The notes: generated from the sequence alone by a model not told the origin. A stretch of 64,000 nt of DNA from Candidatus Levyibacteriota bacterium (GCA_016214555.1 JACROF010000002.1:69416-133415); one strand, 5' to 3'. Positions 10,282 to 35,479 are shown, counted from the stretch's first letter. A program made the numbers and translations.

Positions 10282-10283
10282 TG

Positions 10284-10356: not shown

Positions 10357-10379
10357 AGGAAGCTTATTATACCATTATG

Positions 10380-10463: not shown

Positions 10464-10501
10464 AGAATATAACACTCTGTATTTTACTTGAATCTGAGGC
10501 T

Positions 10502-12867: not shown

Positions 12868-12891
12868 GAAAAAATTGTATCACGGAGTATA

Positions 12892-13734: not shown

Positions 13735-13738
13735 TGCA

Positions 13739-14512: not shown

Positions 14513-14610
14513 TCTTGACTCTAGGCTTGAAAGAAGCTATACTCGATAACGCACTACATCCACTACGCTCCCTCGTTTTTGGTTAACTCTGCATCCTGTA
14601 GTTATATAAT

Positions 14611-16068
14611 ATGATATCTCGATCTACTCTTATAAAAGAGCTTTCATTTTCTAGACTTAAAACTAAGATCAGTAAATCAAAACGTTACCAACGTACTGTC
14701 AAATTTGTTGAGAAAAAACCGTTTTCTAGCTTTTTGGTTAGTCTTGGCATACTACTTTTTATCCTCATTCTTGGCAACATCATAGGAAATCTCGGGAAGA
14801 AAACAGCAGAACCACACATACCAACTAAAGAAGTAAAAATTTATAGCATTGGCAAAGCACCAACGGTTGCTCTTCAGGCACAAGTTGAGAGAAATGGGAT
14901 TATAAAAATTGTAGCTCAAGCACCTGGAATCGTTCAAAAGGTACATGTCTTAGAGGGGCAGACGGTAAGTAAGGGACAGACTCTTGTCTCTTTCTCCTCA
15001 AATTACCAAGGAGGAAATGCAGCAGGCCTTCAAGTTCAGCTTGCAGGAGTACAACTTAAAAATGTCAACGAAACATACTCACTCCAAAAAAACATATTGA
15101 ACAGGCAAAGAGATATTGCAACTGCCTCAGCTCAAAATACCGACCAGCTAAGACAAATTACCGAGAAATCTCTTGGTGAGACCAGAGATCTGCTCGCTCT
15201 TAATGAAAGCATGTTAACAAGCCTCAATGATCAAATTACACAAAAGGAGCTAGCAAATCCTTCAGACCCTGAACTTCCTGGCCTTCGCGCATCACAAGCA
15301 CAACTTCAAGCAGGAGTTAATCAGCTTCGTGGTAGCGTCCGGTCGATTGAGTACCAAGTTAATACAGAAAAGCCCCCAACTCTTTTAAGTAACCTGCAAA
15401 AAGAGATCACAGTTAAACAACTCGAAATCCAAGATAAAGCTCTTGAGCTTAATAAGACAGTAAGTAAGATACAGTACAATCTTGCACTCGTACAGGAGGG
15501 AATTATGCACCCCGCATCTCCTTTTTCTGGCGTCGTGCAGAGAGTACATGTACACGAGGGTGAAAATGTAAGTCCAGGTACTGTTGTTGCTGTTGTTGCA
15601 AGCAATCAAGGTAGCTCAACAATTATTCTTAGAGCTCCTCGAGAAATAGCAGAGTCTGTCTCTCGCATAGAAGCAAGTGGATTGTTGATTGGAAATAAAG
15701 TTATTGCGGCAACCCCGTCATACGTCTCAACTGTCGCAACAGATGGGCAACTTTACTCTATTATCTACACACTTCCTGATGGGGTTGAGGAGTCACTAAA
15801 TGACGGTGAATACATTCAAATTTCTGTTCCTGTTGGCTATGCTGACACCAACAGTGTTGTTCCTTTCGTTCCTATCGATTCTGTTTACGAATCTCAATCT
15901 GAATCAAACATCTTTGTTGCTAAAAATGGAAAAGTTATTTCCAAAAAAGTTGTGGTAGGAGATGTCTTTGGACAATATGTTCAAGTAATGAGTGGTCTTC
16001 AAAATGGCGACCAAGTTATTCTTAGCCGCAATGTTATTGCAGGAGATAAAGTAGTTATCAAGCAATAG
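14611..16068 (+). CDS. efflux transporter periplasmic adaptor subunit (HlyD/membrane-fusion family)
   Basis: N-terminal TM anchor, a biotin-lipoyl-like segment (KIVAQAPGIVQKVHVLEGQTVSKGQTLV), a coiled-coil middle and a C-terminal beta domain. Sits immediately upstream of the RND permease. Confidence 0.7.
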   Translation: MISRSTLIKELSFSRLKTKISKSKRYQRTVKFVEKKPFSSFLVSLGILLFILILGNIIGNLGKKTAEPHIPTKEVKIYSIGKAPTVALQAQVERNGIIKIVAQAPGIVQKVHVLEGQTVSKGQTLVSFSSNYQGGNAAGLQVQLAGVQLKNVNETYSLQKNILNRQRDIATASAQNTDQLRQITEKSLGETRDLLALNESMLTSLNDQITQKELANPSDPELPGLRASQAQLQAGVNQLRGSVRSIEYQVNTEKPPTLLSNLQKEITVKQLEIQDKALELNKTVSKIQYNLALVQEGIMHPASPFSGVVQRVHVHEGENVSPGTVVAVVASNQGSSTIILRAPREIAESVSRIEASGLLIGNKVIAATPSYVSTVATDGQLYSIIYTLPDGVEESLNDGEYIQISVPVGYADTNSVVPFVPIDSVYESQSESNIFVAKNGKVISKKVVVGDVFGQYVQVMSGLQNGDQVILSRNVIAGDKVVIKQ

Positions 16069-16075
16069 TATATGT

Positions 16076-19000: not shown

Positions 19001-19423
19001 AAGGCTATTATCGTAATGTTAGTTATCCCTCTATCAATCTCTGGCGTATTTATTGTCTTTGCACTCACAAAAACACCTCTGTCATTCCCAGCACTTATTG
19101 GTATTCTTGCGCTCTTTGGCATTGTAGTAAAAAATGCTATTCTTGTTGTCGACAAAATCAATGCAAATGTAGCAATCGGCATGAAATTTGCCGACAGTAT
19201 CGTTGATGCATCAGAGAGTAGACTTGAGCCAATTGCGCTGACCTCTCTTGCAACAATTTGTGGATTGATCCCTATTACAGTCTCTGATCCACTCTGGAGA
19301 GGACTTGGCGGAGCGATCATTGCAGGACTTCTTTTTTCAGGAACCATAATGCTCTTCTTTATTCCTGTTGTCTACTACAACTGGTTCAATCCAGTAAAAA
19401 AGACAAGGATAAAACGATCATGA
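16076..19423 (+). CDS. efflux RND transporter permease subunit (AcrB/MMPL superfamily)
   Basis: 1115 aa with two 6-TM bundles and large periplasmic loops. Organisation is typical of RND transporters. Confidence 0.85.
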   Translation: MKTETSYLHHLRFDSRLKNSFVAKYLSNPRLVILLLLTIIGIGATSYASLPRRVNPEINIPIIVVSTVLPGANPQDVESLVSQPIEDGIDSVANIKTVSSTSQENVSIVQIEFNSGIDPDKARGDIQSAIDQVELPTDALSPKVIKIDFENQPVWTFTLIGKGDVASLSRFAIKLKNDLENKSSIDNATTNGLEEREISVIIDPSRIATYGITPFQLSSLVKASVGSFPAGTVLTQNSSFALSIDPAVTSVEDVRNLQLNIQGTIVPLSSIATITERSKPNQSPSYFASHTREPERSITFNVYKTSTANIDQATKDAEKIVHENIASYKGQFETLTIVNSGELINEQFNELIRDFSITTILVFIVLFVFLGARQAFVSFFAVPLTFLISFSVMKFTGISLNFLSMFSLLLSLGLLVDDTIVVISAMTSYYRSKKFTPLETGLLVWKDFLTPILTTTLTTVWAFLPLLLSTGIIGEFIKAIPIVVSSTLLASLAVALLVTLPLMIILLKPAIPSRVVVLFRILFVMFLLSIFAFIVPKGIFLPFAFLALFVFLFVTAKARLGLVRKSKIFIEKTKRNHQSLKVAPSFIDNGVFDFGRFSIKYRRALAKILATKENRRRAVFMVITFSLFSYLLVPFGFVKSEFFPKSDQDFVYVSVELPAGTNTDTAEKESLYLLKTLRNTKDVSYVIVDIGQAFSQSGGQASSGSNNILYSLVLPKNRSSSSIDIAQNLRDTLSGYTPGKLTVTEESGGPPAGADVQIKLFGDDIPTIDSYANNVVSYLEKQKGTTDISKSIKPGTSKIVFVPNQTKLLQNNLTQDQVGIWLRSFASGFTLDSVKFGNEAVPGNKKQDITFRMSPKLESVSDISTLSIPTQSGPVAISSLGKLKLESNPTLITREDGKRTISITATVTKGYQASEINKNLESYADNNLNLPDGYSWKTGGANEENQNSVTSILAAMLLSFLLIVVTMVIQFGSFRKAIIVMLVIPLSISGVFIVFALTKTPLSFPALIGILALFGIVVKNAILVVDKINANVAIGMKFADSIVDASESRLEPIALTSLATICGLIPITVSDPLWRGLGGAIIAGLLFSGTIMLFFIPVVYYNWFNPVKKTRIKRS

Positions 19424-19974
19424 ACGAGAGACAAAAAAGAGCCTCTGTTGAAATGCACTTAGTAGGCAGAGAGGATCAGTCTCCAGAAGAGTTTTTGTCT
19501 GAAAGGCAGAGAATGAAGATACACTATTCTCAGCCTGCATTTCCTCAATCTCCTGAGGTGATAAAAAAGAGAGCATCACAAATCATATATGAGAGTCCAC
19601 TCACAGTAACAATCCCTGGCTATAAACCTTCCCCAGTTAGTGACGTGTCTGAAGACGCTATCGTAGAGTATGACAAGACAGGCAGAGCAGTGAAGGTCAC
19701 TGGGTCGACACTTGAATACACGCGCGAATACAGTCCCAATGGATATATCACTCATGAAGTGATTAGGAAAACAGATGCAGAAGGAATTGTCACTGAGGAA
19801 TTCTGTGAATTTAGCTACGGTATGCAGCGAGGGAATTATTGTGTCCAAAGAATATCAGTTACTCCATACAGAGTAACAGGTGAGCAAAAAACACAGATCA
19901 AGTCGACATTCCTCATAGATCTTACGGATCTTTATCCACACGTGCCACTTAAAAAGTCAGCTCCATCTTTTTAA
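19420..19974 (+). CDS. hypothetical protein (184 aa)
   Basis: ATGA start/stop overlap with the RND gene. No motif recognised. Confidence 0.5.
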   Translation: MNERQKRASVEMHLVGREDQSPEEFLSERQRMKIHYSQPAFPQSPEVIKKRASQIIYESPLTVTIPGYKPSPVSDVSEDAIVEYDKTGRAVKVTGSTLEYTREYSPNGYITHEVIRKTDAEGIVTEEFCEFSYGMQRGNYCVQRISVTPYRVTGEQKTQIKSTFLIDLTDLYPHVPLKKSAPSF

Positions 19975-21611: not shown

Positions 21612-22157
21612 GTGGCTGTTCCAAACTTCACTGACCTTGAGTCAAACAAGTATGTAATCGTCTGGAATCAGACATGCCCACCACCTGACCCATATGCAGT
21701 ACCAGCAGAGTGCGTAGCAACAGGCTTTACGTATGGCGCACCTATTGTTGGCACAGGAGGCAATAACTCTATCAATGGAACTGGCGGAAATGATCTCATA
21801 TTTGGACTTGGTGGCAACGATAAAATTGATGGAAGAGGTGGTAACGACTGTATCGTTGGAGGAGATGGAAATGACAAGCTATCTGGAGGCACAGGTCTAG
21901 ATGTGTTGCTTGGAGGCATTGGAAATGACGCACTTAGTGGAGACAGCGGCAATGATGTCCTCTATGGCAATGAAGACAATGACAGTCTCAAAGGCGGGTC
22001 AGACAATGACAGGCTTTACGGTGGCACTGGAAATGACGCTCTAGATGGAGGAAGCGATGACGACATCCTCAATGGAGAAGCAAATAGTGATGCTGCTAAA
22101 GGAGGATCTGGAATTGACGCATGTACTGCTGAATCAGTTAAGCAGTGCGAGGTCTAA
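21612..22157 (+). CDS. RTX calcium-binding nonapeptide-repeat domain (C-terminal part of the interrupted gene; same frame as 20421..21509)
   Basis: Tandem GGxGxDxL-type repeats (GTGGNDLIFGLGGNDKIDGRGGNDCIVGGDGNDKL...). The C-terminus CTAESVKQCEV is homologous to the C-terminus of the 24126..25073 protein. The track start is GTG. The frame is open back to 21510. Confidence 0.6.
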   Translation: MAVPNFTDLESNKYVIVWNQTCPPPDPYAVPAECVATGFTYGAPIVGTGGNNSINGTGGNDLIFGLGGNDKIDGRGGNDCIVGGDGNDKLSGGTGLDVLLGGIGNDALSGDSGNDVLYGNEDNDSLKGGSDNDRLYGGTGNDALDGGSDDDILNGEANSDAAKGGSGIDACTAESVKQCEV

Positions 22158-22242: not shown

Positions 22243-22827
22243 ATGATCAACCGAAAAATTGCATTAAGTAGTATGTCTATCTTCGCATCTCTTGCGCTGA
22301 TGGGCGGTGCTACTTTCGCATTCTTCAGCGACTCAGCAACAAGTACTGGAAATTCATTTGCAGCAGGAAGTTTTGATCTTAAGATTGGAACCTCAGCTCC
22401 AGCAGCATCTGATTCAATAGGAGCAGTATTTGCAAGCGCAAACATGATCCCAGGTGCAACTCCCGAAACAGCAACAATATTTTTACGAAACACTGGAACA
22501 GTGGCAGGCAACAAGGCTTACTTAAAAATAGAGAACGTTGGGGGAATTGACAACAACGCCAATCAGCCCACTCCAATGACTCGACAAGTTGATATTACTG
22601 TCTCATTAGACGGCACGCCCGTTCTCATTCCAGATACAAATGGGAATGCAAGGCAAGACCTTGAAGACCTTCAGCTATCAGGTAATGGTCTTCAAATTGG
22701 TACTATAACTGACACCGGAGTAGACCATACTTTAGTTGTTACAGCAGGATTAAATTCTGGCGCTGGCAACGAGTATCAAGGAGACTCAGTCACAGCAGAC
22801 TTGAGAGCAACTCTTACTCAAGACTAA
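22243..22827 (+). CDS. TasA/camelysin-family (peptidase M73-like) secreted protein with SipW-cognate signal
   Basis: N-terminus GGATFAFFSDSATSTGNSFAAGSFDL matches the TasA motif AAFND..ATFASGTLDL. This is followed by beta-rich IPGATPE / FLRNTGTV segments. The GAAAGGAGGTGAAT RBS precedes it. Confidence 0.65.
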   Translation: MINRKIALSSMSIFASLALMGGATFAFFSDSATSTGNSFAAGSFDLKIGTSAPAASDSIGAVFASANMIPGATPETATIFLRNTGTVAGNKAYLKIENVGGIDNNANQPTPMTRQVDITVSLDGTPVLIPDTNGNARQDLEDLQLSGNGLQIGTITDTGVDHTLVVTAGLNSGAGNEYQGDSVTADLRATLTQD

Positions 22828-22889
22828 TTCAGGCAGGTGGTGGGGGAGCGTATACACCCCCACTACCTCTGAGGAAAGGATAAGTACGT

Positions 22890-23495
22890 ATGAAAAATAA
22901 ATTGAAAAAAATTAGCAATCACAAGGTTGCAAAACACACCAAGACTGTATTGAAGTGGAAATTTAGTGTGATTTCATTTATATTTCTGCCTCTAGCTATT
23001 TTCACCCTTCTTACAGCCAAAACGACAATAATTCCAACAATCCAATCATTTGTCGTACTAACAGGTAGCATGAAACCCACCCTACCAATTGGCGCTGTTG
23101 TTTACACCCAAAAAGGAAGCGCCATACAAAAAGGTGATGTCATCACTTTCTCAAATAACAAAGGGCAAATTATCACACACCGTGTTGTAGATATTAAAAA
23201 AGCAACGAGCGGACTATCCTACCAAACAAAAGGAGACGCCAACAACACCACAGACCAATCTCTTGTCCCTTCAACCAGTATCAAAGGGAAAGTTCTTTTT
23301 TCACTGCCATACCTTGGTTATCTTATTAATGCTTTAAGAAGTCCTGTTGGGTTTCTGATGTTTGTTATCTTGCCAATTTTGATTTTTATTGCGCTTGAGC
23401 TATGGAATATCAAAGGAGAGATTGAAAAATCAATTGAGAGAAAGCTGAGGCAAGAATTAAGTATCAAAAAATATGAAAAAATTGATATTTCTTAA
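22890..23495 (+). CDS. sipW: signal peptidase I, SipW-type (S26B)
   Basis: N-terminal TM, the VVLTGSMKPTL catalytic-Ser box, GDVITF and ITHRVVDI boxes, and a C-terminal TM. This is the archaeal/SipW-like architecture. Confidence 0.7.
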   Translation: MKNKLKKISNHKVAKHTKTVLKWKFSVISFIFLPLAIFTLLTAKTTIIPTIQSFVVLTGSMKPTLPIGAVVYTQKGSAIQKGDVITFSNNKGQIITHRVVDIKKATSGLSYQTKGDANNTTDQSLVPSTSIKGKVLFSLPYLGYLINALRSPVGFLMFVILPILIFIALELWNIKGEIEKSIERKLRQELSIKKYEKIDIS

Positions 23496-24129
23496 TCTTA
23501 TTACGATGACTGTTTTGTTTGGATTATCATATTCGGTAACACGTGCATTATTTGCTGATAGTGCTACAAGCACCAGCAATTCTTTTACAGCAGCAGCCGA
23601 ATTTCCATCACCTACTCCTACACCAAGTTCATCAGTAGGATCAGTGGTCATCAACGAGCTCATGTGGTCGGGCAGCACAAATACAGATGATGAATGGCTT
23701 GAGCTTCGCAACATGACAAGCTCACCAATTGATCTTACTAACTGGAAATTGGAAGGAAACACTACTCTCACAATCGCATCAGGGACTATTCCAGCAAATG
23801 GTTATTTCCTAGTATCACACTTTGCTGAGACTGATGAAAATTCAATTCTCGGCATCACGCCAGATATCGTTTCTCCATCCGTTCAACTTAATAACACAAA
23901 TCTACAATTAACTTTACGAGATGCTTCTAGCAATATAGTTGACCAAGCAGATGATGCAATTAACCCTCCCTTTGCTGGGAGCAACACTACTCCTAAAAAG
24001 TCAATGGAAAGAAACCTTGTGCCTGGAGATGGAACTGTGTCATCAAACTGGCATACAGCATCTACACAACTTAATCTTGACAGCGGAGCACTCGAGTCTG
24101 CTACTCCAAAAGGAGCAAATAGCTTATGA
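23473..24129 (+). CDS. lamin-tail-domain (LTD) protein with SipW-cognate signal peptide
   Basis: N-terminus TRALFADSATSTSNSFTA, then a Pro/Thr linker, then VVINELMWSGSTNTDDEWLELRNMTSSPIDLTNWKL (the LTD signature). Confidence 0.6.
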   Translation: MKKLIFLNLITMTVLFGLSYSVTRALFADSATSTSNSFTAAAEFPSPTPTPSSSVGSVVINELMWSGSTNTDDEWLELRNMTSSPIDLTNWKLEGNTTLTIASGTIPANGYFLVSHFAETDENSILGITPDIVSPSVQLNNTNLQLTLRDASSNIVDQADDAINPPFAGSNTTPKKSMERNLVPGDGTVSSNWHTASTQLNLDSGALESATPKGANSL

Positions 24130-25073
24130 GAATTTTAAAGAATAAATTGATTCACGTTGGCATACTATTAATTGCAGTGACCCTTATTGCTTTTCATACT
24201 CATGCTATTCAGAAAATTTTCTGGCCGGAAAGAGTCGAAGCGGTTGGGGATCTGACCATTAACTGGGGAATTGGCACTGGCAATGTAGGGCCTATCTTTA
24301 CTCTCAACGATATGGCCCCAGGCCAATCTGAGCAAAAAACGGTAAGCGTTAGCAATGGAAGCCTCAATCCGCTCACCATTAGCGTAAGAGGAGTAAAAGC
24401 TTTAGAGACTGCAAGCCTAGCTAATGTAATGAACATTGCCATTTCCCACAATGGTGTGGATCTATATGGAGGTTCTAGTCCTACTGGATTTAAAACATTG
24501 GCAGACTTTTTTTCAGATAGCTCAAACATCCTGGGAATCTCACTTAAAACACAGAGCCCAAACACAACAGAAAATTATCAATTTACCATAACTTTTAACG
24601 AATCTGCAGGCAACACATACCAAAACGCATCACTATCTTTTGATATTCATATGGGAATAGCTATTGACATCCCAATTGCTTGCCAATCAATTAATTTTGG
24701 CACTCATGAGCCAATTATTGGATCTAAGAAAAGCGAGAAACTAACTGGTACAGCTCAAAATGACCTGATACTTGGAATGGGTGGCAGTGACAAAATTGAT
24801 GGCAAAGGAGGCCATGACTGCATTCTGGGTGGAGACGGTAGTGACTCAATTACAGGAGACACCGGCGATGATGTCCTAGTAGGTGAGGGCGGAAGCGATA
24901 CTATTCGAGCAGGAAGTGGAAACGACACCATTACTGGAGGCAACGGAGCAGATAGCATGTACGGAGACGCAGATAATGACACAATTGTTGGAGATGGTGG
25001 ATCAGACAAAGCGGTTGGTGGAACAGGGACTGATACTTGCAGCGCAGAATCAAAATCACAGTGTGAATTATAA
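24126..25073 (+). CDS. TasA-like domain fused to C-terminal RTX calcium-binding repeats
   Basis: N-terminal anchor, then FTLNDMAPGQSEQKTVSVSNGSLNPLTISV (TasA-like beta-sandwich). The C-terminal 100 aa are GGxGxD repeats ending CSAESKSQCEL. Confidence 0.6.
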   Translation: MRILKNKLIHVGILLIAVTLIAFHTHAIQKIFWPERVEAVGDLTINWGIGTGNVGPIFTLNDMAPGQSEQKTVSVSNGSLNPLTISVRGVKALETASLANVMNIAISHNGVDLYGGSSPTGFKTLADFFSDSSNILGISLKTQSPNTTENYQFTITFNESAGNTYQNASLSFDIHMGIAIDIPIACQSINFGTHEPIIGSKKSEKLTGTAQNDLILGMGGSDKIDGKGGHDCILGGDGSDSITGDTGDDVLVGEGGSDTIRAGSGNDTITGGNGADSMYGDADNDTIVGDGGSDKAVGGTGTDTCSAESKSQCEL

Positions 25074-25143: not shown

Positions 25144-25761
25144 GTGAATACAAAAATGACAAATCTAAAAACAAAAATTACAACCGGTCTCGTGACTGCT
25201 GGTATTATTGCCAATTTTGTTGCTCCAGCAGCTTTTGCGGATACAGATGTTACTGTTAAAGAAAACGGCGATAGTTCAACTAACAAAGTTAAGGTTAAGA
25301 ACAAACACGTCGTCAAGGTTAAGCAAAAAAACACAACAAATATAACAAATTCTGTTGGCTTGACTCAAAGCACTGGCGGTAACAACGCCAAGAAAAATAC
25401 CGGTGGCGATGTCACCCTTACAAGCGGGGACGCTACAGCTAATGTAACCATCGACAACACAACAGATGGCAATACAGCTACAGTTGATGGGTGTGGCTGC
25501 GCTGGTGGAGACACAACAGTAAATGTTGAAGGCAATGGAGCCGACTCAACAAATAAAGTTAAAGTCTCCAACGTTAATGTCACAAAGGCTACTCAAAAGA
25601 ACACAACAACTGTGATCAACGGAGTAAGTATTGGACAGACAACGGGTGGCAATTCAGCAAATAGCAACACAGGTGGATCAGTTGATGTTACATCTGGTGA
25701 TGCTGATGCTACTGTAGGCATTGCCAACTCAGTTGGTGAAAACTCTTTAACTATTAACTAA
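25144..25761 (+). CDS. secreted Asn/Thr/Gly-rich repeat protein (2 modules), novel repeat family
   Basis: GAAAGGAGGTGAAT RBS and a signal peptide. Two ~85 aa modules have the form V.V..NG..S.N.V.V.N...V...Q.N.T.I.N.V...Q.TGGN.A..NTGG.V..TSGDA.A.V.I.N, separated by VDGCGCAGG. Confidence 0.6.
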   Translation: MNTKMTNLKTKITTGLVTAGIIANFVAPAAFADTDVTVKENGDSSTNKVKVKNKHVVKVKQKNTTNITNSVGLTQSTGGNNAKKNTGGDVTLTSGDATANVTIDNTTDGNTATVDGCGCAGGDTTVNVEGNGADSTNKVKVSNVNVTKATQKNTTTVINGVSIGQTTGGNSANSNTGGSVDVTSGDADATVGIANSVGENSLTIN

Positions 25762-25791
25762 TAGTTTGAGTAAATCTTCTAGAAGGACAAG

Positions 25792-25828
25792 GCCCTGCCC
25801 AGGCTGACGAGCCCAGGCAGGGTTTTTG
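25792..25828 (+). terminator. intrinsic terminator
   Basis: ccctgcc ... ggcaggg (7 bp perfect) followed by ttttt. Confidence 0.6.
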
Positions 25829-25877
25829 TTGAGAAAACTCTTACACAAAATATACAAATATGGTATAAACTATAGGT

Positions 25878-26309
25878 ATGCGATTTATCCTCCTTTTCCT
25901 CTCAATTCTTTCCTTTATTGGACTTAAAAAAACTTTTGCCGAGACAAATGTTGTAGTAAAGTCAAATGGTGGTTCAAGTCACGTAAATGTTGTTTCTAAA
26001 ACGAGCTCAGGCGACAGCACAACCTCAGAGAGTCATGTAACAATTGAGAACAATGGGGAAGTTAAGACCTTTGATGTTACAGGGGATGAGTCAATTGATT
26101 GGACCTCAGATGATGGCAAATCTACAGTCAAAATTAACGCTCAGACAATTACGCCATCACCCAAAGCCTCCATGTCACCAACAGTTACAAAAAATGAGGA
26201 ATCAAAATCCACAGTGTCTTTGAGTCAAGACCAACCCAAAAAGTCAGTTTCTCTTTATGAGCTTGTTAAGAAAGTACTTCAGGACATCTTTTCCTCTTTT
26301 GGTAGATAA
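25878..26309 (+). CDS. short secreted paralog of the repeat family (1 partial module)
   Basis: Signal peptide, then VVVKSNGGSSHVNVVSK..., the same opening as the module. Confidence 0.45.
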   Translation: MRFILLFLSILSFIGLKKTFAETNVVVKSNGGSSHVNVVSKTSSGDSTTSESHVTIENNGEVKTFDVTGDESIDWTSDDGKSTVKINAQTITPSPKASMSPTVTKNEESKSTVSLSQDQPKKSVSLYELVKKVLQDIFSSFGR

Positions 26310-26450
26310 ACCATATTTGTCTTACTTGACAAACAGCGCAATATTTTTCAAACTATATATGTGGCTAGTAAATCTGTCAAAAAAACATCGCAAAAAAGCC
26401 GTCTTGAAAACCCTGTTCACAACTTGATAGGATATGGGGCACTTCTTGTC

Positions 26451-27080
26451 TTATCTTTTGTCGTTCTTGCTATTGTCTACAGTCTCCAGTGGTACATCAT
26501 TCCCTGATTCCTTCGCAAAAATCAAAAGCCTTTTCCAATCAGTCCCAATAGGTGTGCAGGTTTGTAGTATAAGAACATCATCTTTTCTCTGAGTAACTTC
26601 ATTAACTTGCCTTGGGCTGACCTCTTTTTTATCAACAACAGCATAGTGGTACTCTTTACTTTGCTTCCACACAACAATACTATCTCCTTTTTCAAGCTCT
26701 CCCAATCGAAGAAAGATGCTATTGTATCTTGTAAGTTCCCAAGGTGAGCTAGATGAGTGTGCAAAAAGATATATTGGTCCACTTTCTCCTGGCAGGGCAA
26801 ATCCCTTTGCGTGTGCAATTCCTTTTTTTAAAGCAGGTATGTATTCATTTTTATTCCAGGGATCAACTTGTGCAATGATATTGCCTGAAGCACGTATTTT
26901 TGGAATCCAAATTGAAAATTCTCTTTCATATACCGAGGGCATTGATGTAGGGAAAAAGTATGCGTGGAATACGGGAAAAAATATATATAAAAATCCTAAA
27001 AAAGACAACAATACTAAGCCATTCCCAATTCCTCTTACAAGTCTATTTTTCATCTGAGTATTGTAGCTAATTCGACTCAC
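26451..27080 (-). CDS. sortase-family transpeptidase
   Basis: N-terminal TM, His box LFAHSS, the TLxTC-like LILQTCTP motif with the catalytic Cys, and an Arg in TDWKRLLIF. Confidence 0.65.
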   Translation of the reverse strand: MSRISYNTQMKNRLVRGIGNGLVLLSFLGFLYIFFPVFHAYFFPTSMPSVYEREFSIWIPKIRASGNIIAQVDPWNKNEYIPALKKGIAHAKGFALPGESGPIYLFAHSSSSPWELTRYNSIFLRLGELEKGDSIVVWKQSKEYHYAVVDKKEVSPRQVNEVTQRKDDVLILQTCTPIGTDWKRLLIFAKESGNDVPLETVDNSKNDKR

Positions 27081-27085
27081 AAGGT

Positions 27086-27116
27086 CAAAAAAAATCCCCT
27101 TGCGGGGATGTTTTTA
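27086..27116 (-). terminator. bidirectional intrinsic terminator (A-run, atcccc-ttgc-ggggat, T-run)
   Basis: Hairpin flanked by A7 and T5. It lies immediately downstream of the 27114..28250 minus-strand gene. Confidence 0.6.
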
Positions 27117-28250
27117 GATTGCAAATGCACCAGGAGACCTGCCGGATCTCAGTCTTAACAGCACACCGAAAAATAACATCAAGAGATTTCCAAGAATGGC
27201 AAGTAATATCCAAGGATTTCCTGTTGCTGGCAACACCTCGCCTGTTGTTGTACCGAGTACAGAATTAGATGTCCCACCACCATTTCCACCTGATGATGGA
27301 GGGTTACCACCATTTCCTGAAGGTGGAGGTGGGGGAGGAGGATTGCATCCATCTCCTTCACATGGTGGTGGAGGAGGTGGTTCTTTGCATCCACAATCCA
27401 CAGTAACTTCACTCTGATTTGCTTGGTTGTCGACATCGATTGAGACATGAATATCACCAGTTTTTATCGCGACATCTCCATTGTTACCATTTGCGTTATT
27501 ATTCCCAGTGATCAAATTCCAAATGCTGTGATTAAAGATGTCTGAAACATTTGAAATAGCAATCGTAGTGCTGGTGTCTTCTCTTAGAGTTATGGTGTTA
27601 ACACTGCCTTCACCATTTCCTGAAATTTTGATTTGAAATCCACCGTTTCCACCTGTTAAAGCGTTAACAATTGCGAGATTTGTTTTATTTTTGATGCTTT
27701 CTTCTACAGTAATATTTCCTGTTGTGATTGCTACATTTCCGTTGTTATTGTTAGCGTTATTGTTACCTGTAATAGCTGTTCCAGATATGTTATTTGTGAT
27801 AGTTGCTTGCTGATTAATACTTATTGCGCTTGTAGTAATACTTGTATAACCAACAGTGTTTATGGAGTTAGCGCCATTTCCAGAAATGATAGCCTGACTG
27901 TCATGATTGTCGCAACATGCACCAGCTGTTATGTCACTATTATTCATACTGTTAGCGATGGTTGTGTCTGTACTGATATTTCCCGTGGTAACAGCGGTAT
28001 CTCCTCCAGTATTGTTACTTGCTGAATTGTCTCCTGTGTTAGCCAAGACATTTACATCATTGTTAACCTCAGCATTATTTTCCTGAGAAACATGTACATC
28101 ATGGGACTGACTTATAGATACATCACTCGAAGATCCATCGCCATTACCAGTAATTGTCAGCGTCTCTGCATGAGCAGTACTCACTGCAAAAGGCAGGAGA
28201 GTCGCACTAAAAACGGTCAAAATAATTTTATCTTTTTTCATCACTAACAT
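27114..28250 (-). CDS. secreted repeat-family protein with PPPPPP linker and C-terminal LPATG sorting signal
   Basis: Signal peptide, repeat modules (NTGGDTAVTTGN..., AGACCDNHD) and two Pro-rich runs. The C-terminus has VLPATG, a hydrophobic stretch and RLRSGR, the classic sortase substrate signature. Confidence 0.65.
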   Translation of the reverse strand: MLVMKKDKIILTVFSATLLPFAVSTAHAETLTITGNGDGSSSDVSISQSHDVHVSQENNAEVNNDVNVLANTGDNSASNNTGGDTAVTTGNISTDTTIANSMNNSDITAGACCDNHDSQAIISGNGANSINTVGYTSITTSAISINQQATITNNISGTAITGNNNANNNNGNVAITTGNITVEESIKNKTNLAIVNALTGGNGGFQIKISGNGEGSVNTITLREDTSTTIAISNVSDIFNHSIWNLITGNNNANGNNGDVAIKTGDIHVSIDVDNQANQSEVTVDCGCKEPPPPPPCEGDGCNPPPPPPPSGNGGNPPSSGGNGGGTSNSVLGTTTGEVLPATGNPWILLAILGNLLMLFFGVLLRLRSGRSPGAFAI

Positions 28251-28290
28251 AATGTATGTTTGGGGGCAGAGGACTATTTGGTTGGCAGAC

Positions 28291-30534
28291 CTAGACTAAT
28301 TTGCGGGCAAGTAATTTTTTCCTTTTCACAATAATTATTCCAACAATTGGTAGCACAAGTAGTAGCCATGCAAGATTGATGCTCATAGCTCCTTTTGCTG
28401 TATCTGCTCCAAGAACTGATGTATCAAGACTCGCACCTTTGACCAAAGAGCTATTTTCATCCTCAGTACTACCAGATCCAACAGATCCTGCACTTGCATG
28501 TGATCCTCCTGATGTTACCTCAGTTGTACCATTGCTATTACTTTTAGTAGATGAGCCTGTTGACTTTGTATTTGATGACTGGTTGCTGGATTTATTCGAG
28601 CCGTTATCATCGTCATGACTGTCTGTTGTGTTACTTGCAGCACTTTCAGTATGAGTATCAAGAGCTGTCTTCTCCTCTTTCTTCTGACCAGGAGAGACAA
28701 AATCTCCAAGCCAAGTTCCAAATACATTAACAACGGTGACAAAAACTTTTCCATTTCCTTTAATATTGTTGTTAACAAAATTGATCATGTTAGCTACGAT
28801 TGTAGCGTCTCCTGTTTTAATATTTGAGTTGCCACCAGTATTGTCACTTGTTGCATTGTTGCCAGTATTTGCAGACAAATTAAGAGTATTATTGATGTCT
28901 GCATTGTTGGTTTGATTTGTAGTATTAGTATTTGTTGTCGATACAGCTGTATCGTTGGTACTATTGGTTCCATTTTTGTTATTTTTTGCTGTGACGTATC
29001 CATTTTCATCGACTTCGAAGTCTGATCCCTCTGATCCTGCAAAGAACGCGTCATCTGGAGCACCCATGATTTTCCCAATCCATCCCTTTGTAACATCATT
29101 AACTAACACAATCCACCAATTTCCACCGACAATATTGTTGTTGGCTATATTAAGGAGATTGACATCAATCGTTGTGTCACCAGTGCTGATTGAAGAATCT
29201 CCGCCTGTGTTTCGACTGGCTGTGTTGTCTCCAGTATTAGCATCAAAGACAAGGTCATTTGTGATATCTGCTGTGTTTGATTGAAACGTATTATCAGTAT
29301 CAACGATGTCTATGTCTGAAGTGTTGGTACTATTACTTCCGTTGCCTGTATTGGTAGCTGCGACATTTCCTCCGCAGCACGCATTCAACTGATCCTCAGG
29401 AAATATGATATCTCCAATAAAATAAAAAAAAATGTTGACAATGCCATAGATGACATTCCCAGCTATATTATTGTTAGCAAAGGTTACAATATTTGCTGCA
29501 ACATTCGCATCGCCGGTTGTGATGCTTGAGTCCCCACCGGTATTTCGACTTGCAGTATTATTTCCAGTATCAGCAGACAGTACGAGATCATTTCCAATTT
29601 GAGCATCGTTTTCTTGTGTTGTTGTAGTTGTATTTGTGGTATCAACACTACCTTGATTGGTTGAATTTGATCCATTTGCCGTATTTGCAACATTTGTTGT
29701 GCCTCCGCATCCTACAATACAGTTGGCAGCAAAATCCAGAACAACATCTCCAATCTGATCATCAAGAACATTAAACTCAGAGACCATTACTCCTTCTGCA
29801 TTCGTATTCACCATAGTAATTACCGTTCCTGTTGAATTTGCATCACCTGTCTTAATGGATGCATCTCCTACATTGTCTGATGCTGTGTTGTCGCCAGTAA
29901 CCGTTGATGAGTTGAGGTTGGTATTTACTGATGCGCTATTTGTTTGAGTCGTATTATTATTGTTGTCAACAACAGCTGAACCACTGTTGGTCGATCCTGT
30001 ACCATTTGCGGTATTTGCAACTACAGCACCACTACCACCTGAACCTGCTCCGACTCCAGCGAGGTTGTTGTTGCCACTATTCACAACGCTTGTCGTACTT
30101 GCAGCATCGCCTGTATCTATTTCAATATCACCAACACCATCTGGTGTCGAATCCGAAGTTTGAGAAAGATTTGTTGGAGTTGGGGTAGGGGAAACTCTAT
30201 TTCTTTCAGGTGGAGTAATGCCCTGACTGATCAAATAAGCATCAACTTGATCTTGAATTTCCTTCTGAAGCTGCTCTCTGTATAGTCTTGCTGCCTTGTC
30301 TGTTTCATCCTCAACATAAGGAGTTGGAGTGGGGGTAGGAGTTGCCTGCTCTTGAGTTGGAGTAGGCTCAGTTGTTTGAGATGCCTCCTGAGTCTGCTCG
30401 CCTGGCGTCGTTTGTTCTGTTGTTGTACTACCTTGATCTACTACTTCGTCAGCATACACAGCCGGTGCGACCTGTGTCGCAACTTGTATAGTCAAGAGTG
30501 TGATTACTAATAATTTTTTAATTATATTTGTCAT
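28291..30534 (-). CDS. large secreted repeat-family protein (747 aa, 4 modules) with C-terminal TM anchor
   Basis: Signal peptide, PT-rich linker, four modules (NTASRNTGGDSSITTGDANVAANIV...), CC/CGG spacers (NACCGG, CIVGCGG), and a C-terminal hydrophobic segment plus a KRKK tail. Confidence 0.65.
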   Translation of the reverse strand: MTNIIKKLLVITLLTIQVATQVAPAVYADEVVDQGSTTTEQTTPGEQTQEASQTTEPTPTQEQATPTPTPTPYVEDETDKAARLYREQLQKEIQDQVDAYLISQGITPPERNRVSPTPTPTNLSQTSDSTPDGVGDIEIDTGDAASTTSVVNSGNNNLAGVGAGSGGSGAVVANTANGTGSTNSGSAVVDNNNNTTQTNSASVNTNLNSSTVTGDNTASDNVGDASIKTGDANSTGTVITMVNTNAEGVMVSEFNVLDDQIGDVVLDFAANCIVGCGGTTNVANTANGSNSTNQGSVDTTNTTTTTQENDAQIGNDLVLSADTGNNTASRNTGGDSSITTGDANVAANIVTFANNNIAGNVIYGIVNIFFYFIGDIIFPEDQLNACCGGNVAATNTGNGSNSTNTSDIDIVDTDNTFQSNTADITNDLVFDANTGDNTASRNTGGDSSISTGDTTIDVNLLNIANNNIVGGNWWIVLVNDVTKGWIGKIMGAPDDAFFAGSEGSDFEVDENGYVTAKNNKNGTNSTNDTAVSTTNTNTTNQTNNADINNTLNLSANTGNNATSDNTGGNSNIKTGDATIVANMINFVNNNIKGNGKVFVTVVNVFGTWLGDFVSPGQKKEEKTALDTHTESAASNTTDSHDDDNGSNKSSNQSSNTKSTGSSTKSNSNGTTEVTSGGSHASAGSVGSGSTEDENSSLVKGASLDTSVLGADTAKGAMSINLAWLLLVLPIVGIIIVKRKKLLARKLV

Positions 30535-30621
30535 ATTTGTTAATTGTTAATTTTCTATTCTCCTTGTATTCGTGGGGCTTACGGAAGTGCTCGTAACACC
30601 CCACGAATCAAGAGAGTTTGA

Positions 30622-31854
30622 TTAGTTGTGGCTTAGTAGCCAATCAACCAAATCTCCAAGATCAAAAGAAAGATCTAAGTGGAGATCGCTAAGATCAACA
30701 TCAGCATCTGGACCATAAAGGTTCATATTGCCGGTGTTTGAAGCATCTACGTTTACATCAGATTCACCAGTTGTGATGGAAGGATCAGATCCTGCCCAAC
30801 CTGTGTTATCGTCTGCATCGTTGTCGCCTGTATCACTATCTGCGTCGACATCATTGTCAACATCAGCATCGTTGTCCTGATCTACATCGAGATCTGCATC
30901 ACTTTCGTAATCGATTTCGTTGTCTGAATCAGTACCGTTACCTGCGATTTTTGCTTCTAGATCTGATAGACAGCCACAAGCTTCTACATCTGCTGCGTTG
31001 AAGTTAGCCATATTGTCTAACGTTACATCAACATTTGAGTCGCCTGTTTCGATAGAAACATCTCCGCCGGTGTTATCCTCTGCGTCGTTGTCTCCAGTAT
31101 CAGAGTCGACGTCGACATCATTGTCGAAGTCTGCATCGTTGTCTTGATCGACATCGACATCACTGTCGAAGTCTAGATCAATATCATTATCTGAATCTGA
31201 TCCATTACCAAGAATCTTTGCACTGAGTGAGCCGCCATCACCAGAGCCACCACCAACAGTTGCACTGTTAGAGTTAGCCTGATTTTTGATCATTACGTTA
31301 ACTTTACTGTCGCCTGTTTTTACCTCGACATCTCCGCCGGTGTTGTCATCAGCATCGTTGTCTCCAGTTTCAGAATCGACATCGACATCGTTATCGAAGT
31401 CTGCATCGTTGTCTTGATCGACATCAACGTCAGTATCGTAATCGAGATCTACATCATTATCTGAATCAGTACCATTACCTGATACCTCAACTGTCGTGTT
31501 ACCATTTTGGCAACATGGGTCTACGTTAGCGTAATTAGCATTTGCTTTGTTTTTGATTGTTACATCAACATTTGAATCACCGGTTTCGACTTTTACATCT
31601 CCACCTGTGTTATCACTTGCAGAGTTGCCACCAGTACTTGAATCGACATCAATATCATTATCGAAGTCTGCATCGTTGTTCTGATTTACGTCAACATCTG
31701 TGTCATGATCGACATTGATACTACTATCACTATTAGAACCGTTTCCGGTAATAGTAAATGATTGAGTAGAAGCGAATGTCATTCCTGCTAGTGCGTGGAG
31801 TAAGACTGATCCGGTTGCAATAGCTGTTGTAATTCGTGTTTTATAGTTTGTCAT
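30622..31854 (-). CDS. secreted Asp-rich repeat-family protein (410 aa, 4 modules)
   Basis: Signal peptide and modules of the form ITGNGSNSDSS..DVDVDQDNDADFDNDVDVDSxTGDNDADDNTGGDVxVxTGDSxVNV, separated by PCCQNG / ACGCLS. Confidence 0.65.
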   Translation of the reverse strand: MTNYKTRITTAIATGSVLLHALAGMTFASTQSFTITGNGSNSDSSINVDHDTDVDVNQNNDADFDNDIDVDSSTGGNSASDNTGGDVKVETGDSNVDVTIKNKANANYANVDPCCQNGNTTVEVSGNGTDSDNDVDLDYDTDVDVDQDNDADFDNDVDVDSETGDNDADDNTGGDVEVKTGDSKVNVMIKNQANSNSATVGGGSGDGGSLSAKILGNGSDSDNDIDLDFDSDVDVDQDNDADFDNDVDVDSDTGDNDAEDNTGGDVSIETGDSNVDVTLDNMANFNAADVEACGCLSDLEAKIAGNGTDSDNEIDYESDADLDVDQDNDADVDNDVDADSDTGDNDADDNTGWAGSDPSITTGESDVNVDASNTGNMNLYGPDADVDLSDLHLDLSFDLGDLVDWLLSHN

Positions 31855-32165: not shown

Positions 32166-32360
32166 TCAAGAGCCAATTTTCACAGTCCTTCCAAGAGAAG
32201 AATCTTGGTTAGTTTTTTTGATATTTCTTTCGGTGATTTGTACAACTTTATAATTTTGAACATAGATTTCAACACTACCCCAACCTCTCACATTTTTCAA
32301 TGCTTCTGTAACTTCATCAATGAGTTCTTTACTTACTTCTTTTGTTGAATAATCATTCAT
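32166..32360 (-). CDS. DUF2292 (YezD-like) small protein
   Basis: 64 aa. GWGSVEIYVQNYKVVQITERNIKKT resembles the YezD family. Confidence 0.5.
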   Translation of the reverse strand: MNDYSTKEVSKELIDEVTEALKNVRGWGSVEIYVQNYKVVQITERNIKKTNQDSSLGRTVKIGS

Positions 32361-32385: not shown

Positions 32386-32985
32386 TTACTGCAGTTTTAA
32401 CTTGAATTCTTCCTTACTACCATTCAACTCTCCGATAAACAAGGTAAGATTTTTATCGTCTTCATTAATAGGGAATGCGAGCCGTGATTGTTTTGTTGAA
32501 TCAGGCTGAATCTCAACAGGGTCACTATGAATATCAGCTGCAAATTTGTCTTTTCCCCCATTAACAGTGAGTCTAATATAATCTCTTGCAGAAACCTGAA
32601 TGCTTGCTTTATAGGTATTAATAATTTTAAGTTTTATCACAAGAAATGTTCTTCCATCAACTGCTCGCGCTTTTTTTCCTTTGACAATAAGTTCATCTCG
32701 AATTTCTGCTGATTCGATTAAGTAACGAATTTTGCTCACTTCTTTGCCACTAGAATCTTTAAGGGGGAATCGAACTTCCTTGTTAATTTCCTGAGTTGCT
32801 TTTGCCTTTTGAAGAGTGATCTTCCCACCACTTGATAATGAATCTGAAAGTCCCGATGATTTTCTAAGAGCGAAAAAACCAAGAAGTAGTAATATAACTC
32901 CGACAATTACTGCAGGAATAAGCAAAGAGTTTTTAGAGAATTTTCGTGATGTAAATGATTTTCTGACACCGTCCATATTAATCAA
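32386..32985 (-). CDS. membrane-anchored DUF4352-like protein
   Basis: N-terminal TM plus a beta-rich domain (RTFLVIKLKIINTYKASIQVSARDYIRLTV). Confidence 0.45.
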   Translation of the reverse strand: MINMDGVRKSFTSRKFSKNSLLIPAVIVGVILLLLGFFALRKSSGLSDSLSSGGKITLQKAKATQEINKEVRFPLKDSSGKEVSKIRYLIESAEIRDELIVKGKKARAVDGRTFLVIKLKIINTYKASIQVSARDYIRLTVNGGKDKFAADIHSDPVEIQPDSTKQSRLAFPINEDDKNLTLFIGELNGSKEEFKLKLQ

Positions 32986-33500: not shown

Positions 33501-34211
33501 TTACTTGTTTCTAATGACTTTTTGCTTAACAGGTGGTGGCCGTCTCAGCCAAATCGTATACACATATCCCAAACCATACTCATAGATTGTTTTAAGAAGG
33601 CCAGATTTAAACCTTCTCATATTAGGAACAACGACCATATCTCTGATAAAAACAACTTTCCCCAACTCTTTCAACCGCAGTCCCACTTCAACATCAGGAC
33701 TCATAGTATACCTCTCATTCATTCCTCCTATTTTTTCGAATGTGTCTTTTCTCACAGCAAAATTAAATCCAATAAGGTGAGGCTTAGCAATTTTTTCGTG
33801 TATGATAAGAAATACGTTGTAGAAAAAACTTCCCAGTATGCGGTAAAGAAGTGGCCCTTCTAGCTTAATCGATCCTGTGGCACCAACAATTCTATTGTCT
33901 TCAAATCTTTTTCTTATACTGGCAACCCAATTTGATAAGACAGTAGTGTCCGCATCTGTCATAGCGATAACATCAGACTTTGCCTCATGCATACCTGCAT
34001 TTAATGCAAAAACAACACCTTGTCGTTCTTCTTTAATAACTTTTGCTCCGTACTTTTTAGCAATTGCTGCAGTTTGATCGGTTGAATTATTGTCGACGAC
34101 AATGACAGAAAAATCTTTGTCTGTTTGGTTTTCTAGACTCTCTAGCGTCTTTGGAAGATACTTTTCTTCGTTATAAGCAGCAATCACAACACAGATAGTT
34201 GGTGTAGTCAT
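33501..34211 (-). CDS. family 2 glycosyltransferase
   Basis: ICVVIAAYNEE...VIVVDNNSTDQT...DADT (DxD) pattern. Confidence 0.8.
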   Translation of the reverse strand: MTTPTICVVIAAYNEEKYLPKTLESLENQTDKDFSVIVVDNNSTDQTAAIAKKYGAKVIKEERQGVVFALNAGMHEAKSDVIAMTDADTTVLSNWVASIRKRFEDNRIVGATGSIKLEGPLLYRILGSFFYNVFLIIHEKIAKPHLIGFNFAVRKDTFEKIGGMNERYTMSPDVEVGLRLKELGKVVFIRDMVVVPNMRRFKSGLLKTIYEYGLGYVYTIWLRRPPPVKQKVIRNK

Positions 34212-34240
34212 GTAGTAATTATAGTGGAAATAACAATGAA

Positions 34241-35479
34241 TTACTCAAATATTTTATTAAGGAGTTCTGTTGCCCTGTACAGCCTCTTAAGAGTTGCTTT
34301 GTTAATATTGCGGATACGAAACCTACCACTATTTTTTTTAAGAAGTACTCTTTTATACACCTCAAGAGTTTCGTTGGCTAACGCTGTTGGCAAAAAATTT
34401 GCTCTTATAAGCTCACGTGATTTTTTTGAAAAGTTTTCTCTTTTTTTTGCATCATCAAGAAGTTCAAGCACCTTTTGAGCAAATAGCATAGGCTTATGAC
34501 TGACCATATAGCCATTTTCTCCATCTATGATGCAGCCAGCATATGCATCATCTTTCACCACCACAAAAGGTAATCCAGCAGCAGCAGCTTCAAGCACAAC
34601 TATACCTTGCGTCTCTGTCCGTGATGAATAAACAAAAATCTCTGCATCAGCATACACTGATGGTATTTCCTTAGGATGAACTTTCCCTGGAAAATGGACC
34701 CTACCCCCAAGCCCAAGTTTTTTAACCAGAGACTTAAGCGATTTGGCCTCCTCGCCATCTCCAACCATAACAAGATGAACGTTGGGATTCTGGTTTGCTA
34801 TAACTTTAAAAGATCTAAGTAGAAATGAACAGTCTTTTTCTTTTCCAAGTCTCCCTACGCTAAGAAGAATGGGGGAGGAAGGAGGAATATTGCATAAATC
34901 ATGTAAATAATTTTTTTTAGCGCTTCTAAATCGTGCTGTATAAATAAAATTTGAAATGACCGTAATTGGCTTAGTAACACCGTAGGACTTAAGATCTTTT
35001 TTCATTTTGAGTGAGGGTGTGATGACCTCATCACACATATTGCTAATAACACGAAGTCCTGTTGCAGCAATACGAGGGGTAATCAATTTTCCATTAAATA
35101 CATAGTGCGTGTAGCGCGTATGTTGCGTATGCACAGTCAGGACATAAGGAATGCCCTTGAGCTTAGCAACTTGATATCCTAAAAAGGAAAAGAAGCCATT
35201 ACCGTGGGCATGTACGATATCAAAATCTCTTGGACTGATTTCCTTAAAAAGGTTGTGAGGGAGAACAAAAGGCATATGAACTTCAGGTTCGGTCGACAGT
35301 AACTTTACAGCACTTAGTCTATATACATCCTTTTCTGTGTCTTTGTACCCGTCAAATTTCGGCGCAAAAATATAAACAGTATGGCCATGCGACCTAAGCT
35401 CGTGAGCAAAATTTTCAACTGAAATAGTTACTCCGTTGAGCATGGGATAATAACTATCAGTAAAAAAGGCTATTTTCAT
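34241..35479 (-). CDS. family 4 glycosyltransferase (GT-B)
   Basis: MKIAFFTDSYYPMLNGV... N-terminal domain and an EAAAAGLPFV C-terminal domain (the E-x7-E region). Confidence 0.85.
   Translation of the reverse strand: MKIAFFTDSYYPMLNGVTISVENFAHELRSHGHTVYIFAPKFDGYKDTEKDVYRLSAVKLLSTEPEVHMPFVLPHNLFKEISPRDFDIVHAHGNGFFSFLGYQVAKLKGIPYVLTVHTQHTRYTHYVFNGKLITPRIAATGLRVISNMCDEVITPSLKMKKDLKSYGVTKPITVISNFIYTARFRSAKKNYLHDLCNIPPSSPILLSVGRLGKEKDCSFLLRSFKVIANQNPNVHLVMVGDGEEAKSLKSLVKKLGLGGRVHFPGKVHPKEIPSVYADAEIFVYSSRTETQGIVVLEAAAAGLPFVVVKDDAYAGCIIDGENGYMVSHKPMLFAQKVLELLDDAKKRENFSKKSRELIRANFLPTALANETLEVYKRVLLKKNSGRFRIRNINKATLKRLYRATELLNKIFE

Follow-up and report, generated by a model that had tools for sequence, protein, structure and literature searches.

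Bacterial surface assemblies built from small β-rich domains include the chaplins, which have conserved Cys pairs, and curli, which have Asn/Gln/Gly-rich motifs. TasA fibers consist of donor-strand-linked globular subunits with a jelly-roll fold rather than amyloid (PMC9245690). The Candidate Phyla Radiation (CPR, or Patescibacteria) makes up a large share of bacterial diversity and is mostly uncultured, and its envelopes and host-attachment structures are barely known in molecular terms. Within this group, a sortase is near-ubiquitous in the Microgenomates, with no substrates named; hypothetical proteins of the membrane or surface account for many of the families enriched in Microgenomates, and CPR genomes are enriched in an MdbA-like oxidoreductase and VKOR (Méheust et al. 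2019, PMC6744442). Here, we analyze a 64,000-nucleotide (nt) stretch of Candidatus Levyibacteriota bacterium DNA (GCA_016214555.1 JACROF010000002.1:69416-133415; hereafter the window), which encodes four secreted proteins, A, C, D and E, composed of tandem copies of one all-β module. The genes for E, D and C form a conserved operon with a sortase gene, and A is encoded just past it on the opposite strand.

With a probability of roughly 60%, we propose that A, C, D and E are components of a CPR/Patescibacteria-specific, sortase-anchored, multi-paralog cell-surface assembly made of four classes of the same module. An earlier note on this DNA, made from the sequence alone, had singled out the repeat proteins as a cell-surface fiber or matrix family; its observation was largely right, and it missed the E-D-C-sortase operon and the position of C as the only predicted sortase substrate.

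A widespread repeat module in four protein classes

The module is ~73-79 amino acids (aa) long, typically ~75 residues, and occurs in 13 full copies in the window (two in A, three in C and four each in D and E; Table 1) rather than the ~14 of the earlier note, whose consensus for it holds. A hidden Markov model (HMM) rebuilt from 587 family modules matched the copies in the window proteins with E-values of 1e-16 to 1e-29, additionally identified the last third of another module in D (aa 135-157) and had zero further matches among all other open reading frames (ORFs) of the window. A phmmer search seeded with one A module likewise returned two copies in A, four in E, three in C and three to five in D. 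The positions N-G..S...T-G.N....N...G are invariant in the alignment of the 13 copies, and the family consensus reads V.IsGNGa.S.N.v.v...n...v.Q.N.A.v.N.V...anTG.N.An.NTGGdv.I.TGDA.v.v.v.N..N.N.

Homologs are numerous. Protein A alone has 94 homolog clusters, whose named sources are Levybacteria, Woesebacteria, Saccharibacteria or 'Patescibacteria group', and an exhaustive profile search returned 3140 representative clusters (at 50% identity) with E<=1e-3, 770 of them with E<=1e-30. Protein sizes of ~200, ~410 and ~750 aa recur among these clusters, and the number of modules per protein ranges from 1 to 10. The family includes proteins of up to 926 and 1183 aa (P0095, P0096), as well as free-standing single-module proteins of ~100-150 aa in metagenomes (P0244-P0258). 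Searching a word-indexed database with a profile of the diverse module alignment yielded 15 short single-module proteins with neither informative names nor co-occurring domains. The ORFs lie where the earlier note had placed them, and its concern that they might be translation artifacts of low-complexity DNA is answered by the 94 close and 3140 remote homolog clusters together with conserved synteny, which indicate real genes.

This widespread repeat is outside every described family, as the earlier note had suspected. Pfam-A and NCBIfam contain nothing that meaningfully matches the module in the window proteins or in ten diverse relatives (<=1183 aa, <=10 modules); the Asp-rich E gives low-scoring compositional matches to Ser-Asp repeat regions of MSCRAMM models, far under cutoff. 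The module profile had zero matches among PDB sequences at E<=10, and a literature search found no paper describing the module. More than 3000 clusters thus make up a family that lacks a Pfam or NCBIfam model.

Each of the four proteins begins with a Sec-type signal peptide, as read from the sequence, and the classes differ in what follows. A consists of two modules separated by a C-G-C linker (nt 25492-25500), whose cysteines, C117 and C119, are nearly invariant among homologs; A-type proteins end at the second module, with no anchor. In C, three modules are followed by a Pro/Gly-rich stalk and a sorting signal. D comprises, in order, a Thr/Pro/Gln-rich N-terminal region, the module fragment and four modules, after which come a Ser/Thr/Asn-rich spacer, an INLAW motif, a membrane helix and a KRKK tail; its modules 2-4, not module 1, carry a hydrophobic NNNIxGN...FGxWxGD extension behind the module. 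This INLAW-helix-basic tail is conserved in ~45 orthologs, with the family form (I/V)NLAW. It has a tripartite look reminiscent of a sorting signal and does not covary with sortase type. E has four modules and a conserved acidic/hydrophobic C-terminal tail, and no anchor. Its tail, kept in E-type orthologs, is first acidic, then W/F-rich and then reads ...F.LS.LL..LGL; it may serve for docking or fold into an amphipathic helix.

The signal peptides of A and E share an unusually well conserved start, MTN(L/Y)KT(K/R)ITT... (nt 25156-25200, + strand, and 31810-31854, - strand), which is retained across A-type homologs. It could point to a specialized signal peptidase, for example SipW, which is encoded nearby; a SipW-type signal peptide model had no match to this start. 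At NCBI, A (HZC02_00570, MBI5044402.1), C (HZC02_00585) and D (HZC02_00590) are listed as hypothetical proteins of a Candidatus Levybacteria metagenome-assembled genome, as are the neighboring proteins B (HZC02_00575) and p199 (HZC02_00605); the exact sequence of E was absent from that look-up.

The module contains a predicted antiparallel hairpin

A single-sequence AlphaFold model of A had a predicted local distance difference test (pLDDT) score of 39.6. With 79 homologs, AlphaFold2 produced an all-β model with a pLDDT of 71 and a predicted template modeling score (pTM) of 0.47. Independently, we applied mean-field direct-coupling analysis to 1347 non-identical modules (effective number 1233). 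The couplings form a clean, continuous antiparallel ladder with i+j of ~98-100, running from (24,73) to (45,53) through (26,71), (28,70/71), (30,68/70), (32,68), (34,64/66), (36,62/64), (38,60/62) and (41,58) to (45,53/55). An identical ladder appears independently in each half of a two-module alignment, and it agrees with the AlphaFold strand breaks at TGG, NTGGD and SGD. Couplings also join the N-terminal GNGxxSxN motif to positions 41-58. These data suggest that the module contains a long antiparallel hairpin with ~20 residues per arm, NTGGD at its tip and a conserved G41-G58 pair at a kink.

This architecture bears on an alternative in which the proteins would be a curli/Fap-like functional amyloid or β-solenoid of parallel stacked rungs, with C or D as the anchored nucleator and E or A as the polymerizing subunit. 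The Asn/Gln/Gly-rich motifs, including Asn/Gln on the conserved face described below, invite such a comparison, as does the combination of long anchored and short secreted forms known from curli CsgB/CsgA and the Streptomyces chaplins, and in-register stacking would be consistent with the strong i-to-i couplings seen between tandem modules. Couplings in the two-module alignment are, however, dominated by i-to-i and mirrored intramodule pairs, the artifact expected of tandem repeats. No constant-separation (parallel) bands were seen in the coupling analysis, and an hhalign self-comparison found no internal sub-repeat, so the β-solenoid that the earlier note had suggested is not supported by the antiparallel ladder. 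Curlin_rpt, chaplin and Fap models had no match at E<=1, nor did PDB sequences, including those of CsgA and FapC, at E<=10. Foldseek gave a best E-value of 0.07 against the PDB (FapC; probability 0.02, template modeling (TM) score <0.1) and TM scores <0.2 against viral models, the insignificant matches being mostly β-helical proteins or amyloids. We consider an amyloid or solenoid improbable.

A shared face, a charged face and junctional cysteines

The strict alternation of polar and apolar residues that the earlier note had described resolves into two faces. At positions 9-39, the even positions hold conserved Val, Ala, Asn and Gln (hydrophobic fraction 0.43-0.54) and the charges are confined almost wholly to the odd positions. 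Acidic residues occupy 0.35 of odd versus 0.01 of even positions across the E-type family, and basic residues occupy 0.24 versus 0.03 in the A-type. In the window, E modules 2-4 have Asp or Glu at 16/16 odd positions of the strands in this span, and the two A modules carry 7 and 4 Lys. Module net charge is negative in 99-100% of C, D and E proteins (medians -17, -23 and -25). A-type proteins, the sole cationic paralogs, are net positive in 88% of cases (median +3). The face formed by the even positions is common to all classes and is presumably buried or an interface, and the classes differ on the exposed, variable, charged face.

Such faces could themselves be the function, in a cation-, mineral-, ice- or polymer-binding matrix (for example, for sequestering Ca2+ or other metals or for capturing DNA) rather than a structural coat. 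Consistent with this proposal, the exposed positions of E modules are Asp/Glu at up to 16/16, RTX-repeat proteins, which bind Ca2+, are encoded next to the cluster, the weak fold matches include ice-binding and antifreeze β-helices, CPR are thought to scavenge DNA (PMC6744442), and A is cationic. The extreme Asp content is nevertheless specific to E of the window, family-wide acidic occupancy being 0.35; C and D are only mildly acidic, and the fold matches are insignificant. Binding of this kind would also be compatible with a structural coat rather than an alternative to it, and we doubt strongly that it is the primary role.

Cysteines concentrate at module junctions. Among 204 family proteins, the module cores hold few of the 709 cysteines located after the first module, 666 (94%) being outside them; of the 411 linkers, 223 (~55%) contain exactly two. 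The Cys pair is not invariant, as the earlier note had it: it is present in six of the nine linkers in the window, and 159/411 family linkers have no Cys. The commonest spacings are CC (83), CxC (70), CxxxC (42) and CxxC (32). Cysteines so close together are unlikely to form ordinary disulfides within a domain. Plausible roles for these pairs are cross-linking between molecules or metal binding.

A conserved operon links the module proteins to a sortase

To place the four genes in context, we compared all stop-to-stop ORFs of 67 loci from species-representative genomes, many of them cut by contig ends, with the module HMM and the neighboring proteins of the window. Most loci come from Microgenomates (Levy-, Davies-, Gottesman-, Woese-, Chisholm-, Curtiss- and Woykebacteria), and the remainder include Saccharimonadales, Doudnabacteria and Parcubacteria. 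The recurring gene order is p199, E-type, D-type, C-type and sortase. E-D is found in 46/67 loci, p199-E-D in 45/67, E-D-C in 42/67, E-D-C-sortase in 30/67 and the full order in 29/67. Typical E-type proteins have 4-5 modules and ~410-460 aa, D-type proteins 4-5 modules and ~710-810 aa, and C-type proteins three modules and ~370-420 aa. The two-module A-type gene usually lies just past the operon on the opposite strand. Intergenic gaps along E-D-C-sortase in the window are 87, 40 and 33 nt, the last separating the C stop from the sortase start.

We drew the operon boundaries from gene spacing and synteny because site counts in a promoter/terminator scan did not exceed those of shuffled sequence. 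Within the operon, a terminator-like hairpin found by that consensus scan between C and the sortase (Table 1) could attenuate transcription, so that the enzyme would be made below the level of the structural genes.

The sortase passes the generic model TIGR01076 (51.8 bits, cutoff 39.35) and falls under the cutoff of every named class (for class C, 52.7 versus 160 bits). C ends in LPATG, a hydrophobic helix and a basic tail, the family form being LP[AVIQSD][TS]G, a hydrophobic helix and YLRLRSGRSP; anchor HMMs align to it at aa 335-368 with scores under cutoff (10.2 versus 20 and 13.2 versus 15.9). LPxTG is not present at the C-termini of A, D and E. Across the survey, an upstream module protein carries LPxTG in 25 of 26 loci with a window-like sortase (145-230 bits, LILQTC). 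In all 11 loci with a divergent sortase (23-39 bits, LTLYTC or LTLFTC), this motif is replaced by (I/V)LGLSxTS or something very similar, and the tail differs as well. These loci are L013, L015, L019, L023, L024, L029, L030, L036, L039, L044 and L047. Because the sorting signal covaries with sortase type, C is the predicted cognate substrate of the operon sortase, for which the genomic evidence is strong, and among A, C, D and E only C is predicted to be a sortase substrate. This covariation also bears out the link between cell-surface proteins and the sortase drawn in the earlier note. To our knowledge, the LGLSxTS-like motif is not a described sortase signal; with the divergent sortase, it may constitute a second sortase/signal pair of new specificity.

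The same architecture could belong to independent beads-on-a-string adhesins or stalk proteins, each displaying rod-like modules by itself, that mediate attachment to the cell hosting the CPR bacterium and do not co-assemble. Tandem all-β modules, a wall-spanning stalk and LPxTG are classic Gram-positive adhesin architecture, module number varies from 1 to 10 per protein, and the exposed face is hypervariable, as would suit a surface under selection. Yet the four-class order and fixed module numbers are kept across very divergent CPR lineages, which points to a multi-component structure of defined stoichiometry. No anchor of any kind is present in two of the four classes, and all four share one conserved face while their charges are complementary. 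We therefore regard separate adhesins as unlikely.

A model for a sortase-anchored surface assembly

In the co-assembly that we propose, C would be covalently joined to peptidoglycan by the operon sortase, and D, with its long Ser/Thr spacer, would be held in the membrane by its C-terminal helix. E and A would be secreted with no anchor of their own. The conserved faces would pack together, with anchored C and D as a base for the assembly of E and A, leaving exposed a polyanionic surface on E and a polycationic one on A. A may bind E, C, D or other anionic polymers electrostatically, and divalent cations may bridge the acidic faces. The CC, CxC and CxxC pairs at the junctions would probably cross-link subunits or bind metal; oxidizing machinery of the MdbA/VKOR type is common in CPR genomes. 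The product would be a coat or fiber on the outer side of the wall that protects the envelope or attaches the cell to a host or surface. We infer this function for the module proteins from the features described above.

Several observations weigh against this model. Confidence in the AlphaFold model is only moderate (pTM 0.47), and few couplings constrain the packing of strand 11-23. Contacts between modules or subunits are not separable from intramodule ones because of the tandem-repeat confound. The 159 linkers that lack Cys indicate that not every junction requires cross-linking. Extracellular disulfides may be short-lived in the anoxic groundwater that many CPR inhabit. The case for co-assembly draws only on synteny, the shared conserved face and charge complementarity, and the sequence does not separate a coat from a fiber.

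A more far-reaching possibility, which we advance tentatively, is that the module represents a new fold, namely an antiparallel β-ribbon that is elongated and two-faced, and that the E-D-C-sortase operon with A builds the principal structure on the outer surface of Microgenomates and of related CPR. Cryo-electron microscopy of ultra-small groundwater cells has shown a regular surface layer and filaments, one or both of which would be this structure; complementary charges on its faces and Cys-pair cross-links between molecules would hold it together. If true, this would name both the long-missing substrate of a near-universal CPR sortase and a lineage-defining envelope component.

The locus is of greater interest than first thought because of its conserved operon, the covariation of sortase and substrate and the size of the family. 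The near-ubiquitous Microgenomates sortase is now tied to a specific operon and a predicted substrate. The NTGGD-tipped hairpin, the conserved and charged faces and the junctional Cys pairs are testable features, and the family provides a starting point for raising antibodies, reading cryo-electron tomography images and studying assembly with recombinant proteins.

Genomic neighborhood

Table 1 Features of the module-protein locus. Positions count from the first nucleotide of the window unless another locus is named.
Feature	Position (nt)	Strand	Details
Variable neighbor cluster upstream of A	22243..25073	+	
Camelysin/TasA-like gene	22243-22827	+	E 4e-10; TIGR04088 E 1.6e-6
SipW signal peptidase	22890-23495	+	
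Lamin-tail-domain protein	23473-24129	+	
RTX-repeat protein	24126-25073	+	
A-type protein	25156..25761	+	201 aa from NCBI start; 205 aa from GTG 25144
A modules	25255-25473, 25525-25743	+	aa 38-110, 128-200 (205-aa numbering); E 4e-21, 1e-20
B, small secreted protein	25878..26309	+	143 aa; not a module protein
B orthologs in other loci	L001 3241-3684; L005 10744-11232; L021 2195-2644; L030 18582-18989; L041 6183-6617		
Sortase	26451..27080	-	209 aa; catalytic motif LILQTC; last gene of E-D-C-sortase operon; Pfam Sortase E 1.1e-18
Terminator-like hairpin and T-run	27094..27109	-	Between C stop codon and sortase start; consensus scan only
C-type protein	27114..28250	-	378 aa; NCBI start 28241 gives 375 aa
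C modules	27939-28154, 27678-27887, 27414-27626	-	E 5e-22, 2e-16, 2e-19
C sorting signal	27117-27233	-	LPATG (aa 340-344), hydrophobic helix, RLRSGRSP tail
D-type protein	28291..30534	-	747 aa
D modules	29800-30012, 29467-29682, 29134-29349, 28765-28980	-	E 7e-16 to 4e-22
D INLAW motif, membrane helix and KRKK tail	28294-28380	-	
E-type protein	30622..31854	-	410 aa
E modules, Asp-rich	31534-31752, 31267-31485, 30997-31215, 30721-30948	-	E 4e-23 to 5e-29
E C-terminal tail	30622-30720	-	
DUF2292-family ORF	32166-32360	-	64 aa; Pfam E 2e-5
p199	32386..32985	-	Membrane-anchored; conserved first gene upstream of E-D-C-sortase

Protein B, counted in the earlier note as a fifth paralog with a partial module, is not a relative of the other four: the family HMM gives it an E-value of 0.56, and hhalign of a B ortholog profile with the module profile gives a probability of 0.3%. 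B had zero matches to Pfam. Its orthologs lie beside the A-type gene in some loci (L001, L005, L021, L030 and L041), often directly after it. The B family is ~140-160 aa long, with a conserved core, V.IE.NGE.KTF...G.E.I.W.S.DGK..VKI, and an amphipathic C-terminus. At the other end of the locus, p199 has a weak DUF4352-like domain (PF11611, E 1.3e-4, under cutoff), and a search for a solved relative of p199 found none. The DUF2292-family ORF lies between p199 and a promoter-like site upstream of E.

The earlier note correctly saw TasA-like and sortase genes beside the module genes. The TasA-like cluster is, however, only a variable neighbor: TasA/SipW genes lie <=10 kb away in 15/67 loci and are missing from the neighborhood in 52/67, and the cluster of TasA-like, SipW, lamin-tail-domain and RTX genes adjoins the A-type gene in about a dozen loci. 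The amyloid context that the note drew from TasA is weak as well, as TasA fibers are now described as donor-strand-linked (PMC9245690). Two RTX-repeat (HemolysinCabind) proteins, at 21612-22157 (+) and in the cluster, share the same Cys-containing tail (...DACTAESVKQCEV and ...DTCSAESKSQCEL), and in other loci orthologs of the latter are flanked by the lamin-tail-domain and A-type genes. Envelope-related genes occupy the flanks at 11905-19974 and 33501-35479 and encode a D-Ala-D-Ala carboxypeptidase, BacA/UppP, an HlyD-like and RND transporter pair, GT2 and GT4; the flanking glycosyltransferases could glycosylate the Ser/Thr-rich spacers.

Two sets of surveyed loci carry unexpected taxonomic labels. 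The L054 contig, labeled Candidatus Limnocylindrales (Chloroflexota), encodes two single-module proteins (8527-9447 and 10001-10729), so that either the family extends beyond CPR or the contig was misbinned. Many TPA_asm loci (L002-L006, L008-L011 and others) are titled 'uncultured Gammaproteobacteria' or 'Pseudomonadales' and nonetheless carry a CPR-type operon, sortase, TasA and SipW; these titles are probably placeholders or errors.

Comparison with known systems

Homology of the module to curli or TasA is not supported. The locus resembles TasA/TapA/SipW and the archaeal AbpA bundling pili in having TasA-like and SipW genes 2-3 kb upstream. The module proteins themselves had zero matches to Peptidase_M73 (PF12389), NF046066 or TIGR04088, which match only the neighbor at 22243-22827, and the donor-strand-linked jelly-roll fold of TasA-type fibers is not the module fold (PMC9245690). 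Nor do the module proteins contain the GGxGxD nonapeptide repeats of RTX proteins (HemolysinCabind) or, by Pfam, SLH or other known S-layer domains.

Sortase-assembled Gram-positive pili offer a closer parallel in gene organization, with three structural paralogs followed by a dedicated sortase, and the disulfide-forming MdbA/VKOR pathway tied to Actinomyces pilus assembly is enriched in CPR (PMC6744442). Here, however, only C has a sorting signal, so canonical sortase polymerization of subunits is not possible, and Pfam finds no CnaA/CnaB pilin domains in the module proteins.

LPXTG wall-anchored proteins such as the SasG/Aap-type rods are matched by the C-type only, in its signal peptide, tandem all-β repeats, Pro/Gly stalk, LPxTG with helix and basic tail, and adjacent sortase. 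No relation of the module to G5/E, Cna-B, Rib, Big or other Pfam repeats is detectable in sequence or fold, and C is one of four co-conserved classes, two of them unanchored and one membrane-anchored, in a CPR host.

The earlier note was right to treat the likeness to curli as mere resemblance. Curlin_rpt (PF07012) had zero matches at E<=1 to the four window proteins and ten diverse family members, as did chaplin (PF03777) to the window proteins; Foldseek against the CsgA fibril 8enq gave an E-value of 5.1 and a TM score of 0.08, and no sequence or fold similarity to FapC repeats was found. The module is hydrophilic and has a predicted antiparallel hairpin, unlike the hydrophobic chaplin domain and the parallel curli solenoid, and CsgE/F/G-type secretion machinery is absent here. 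What the locus shares with the chaplins, where ChpA-C are long and sortase-anchored and others are short and secreted, and with CsgB/CsgA is a logic of construction in which paralogs are made from one small β-rich domain.

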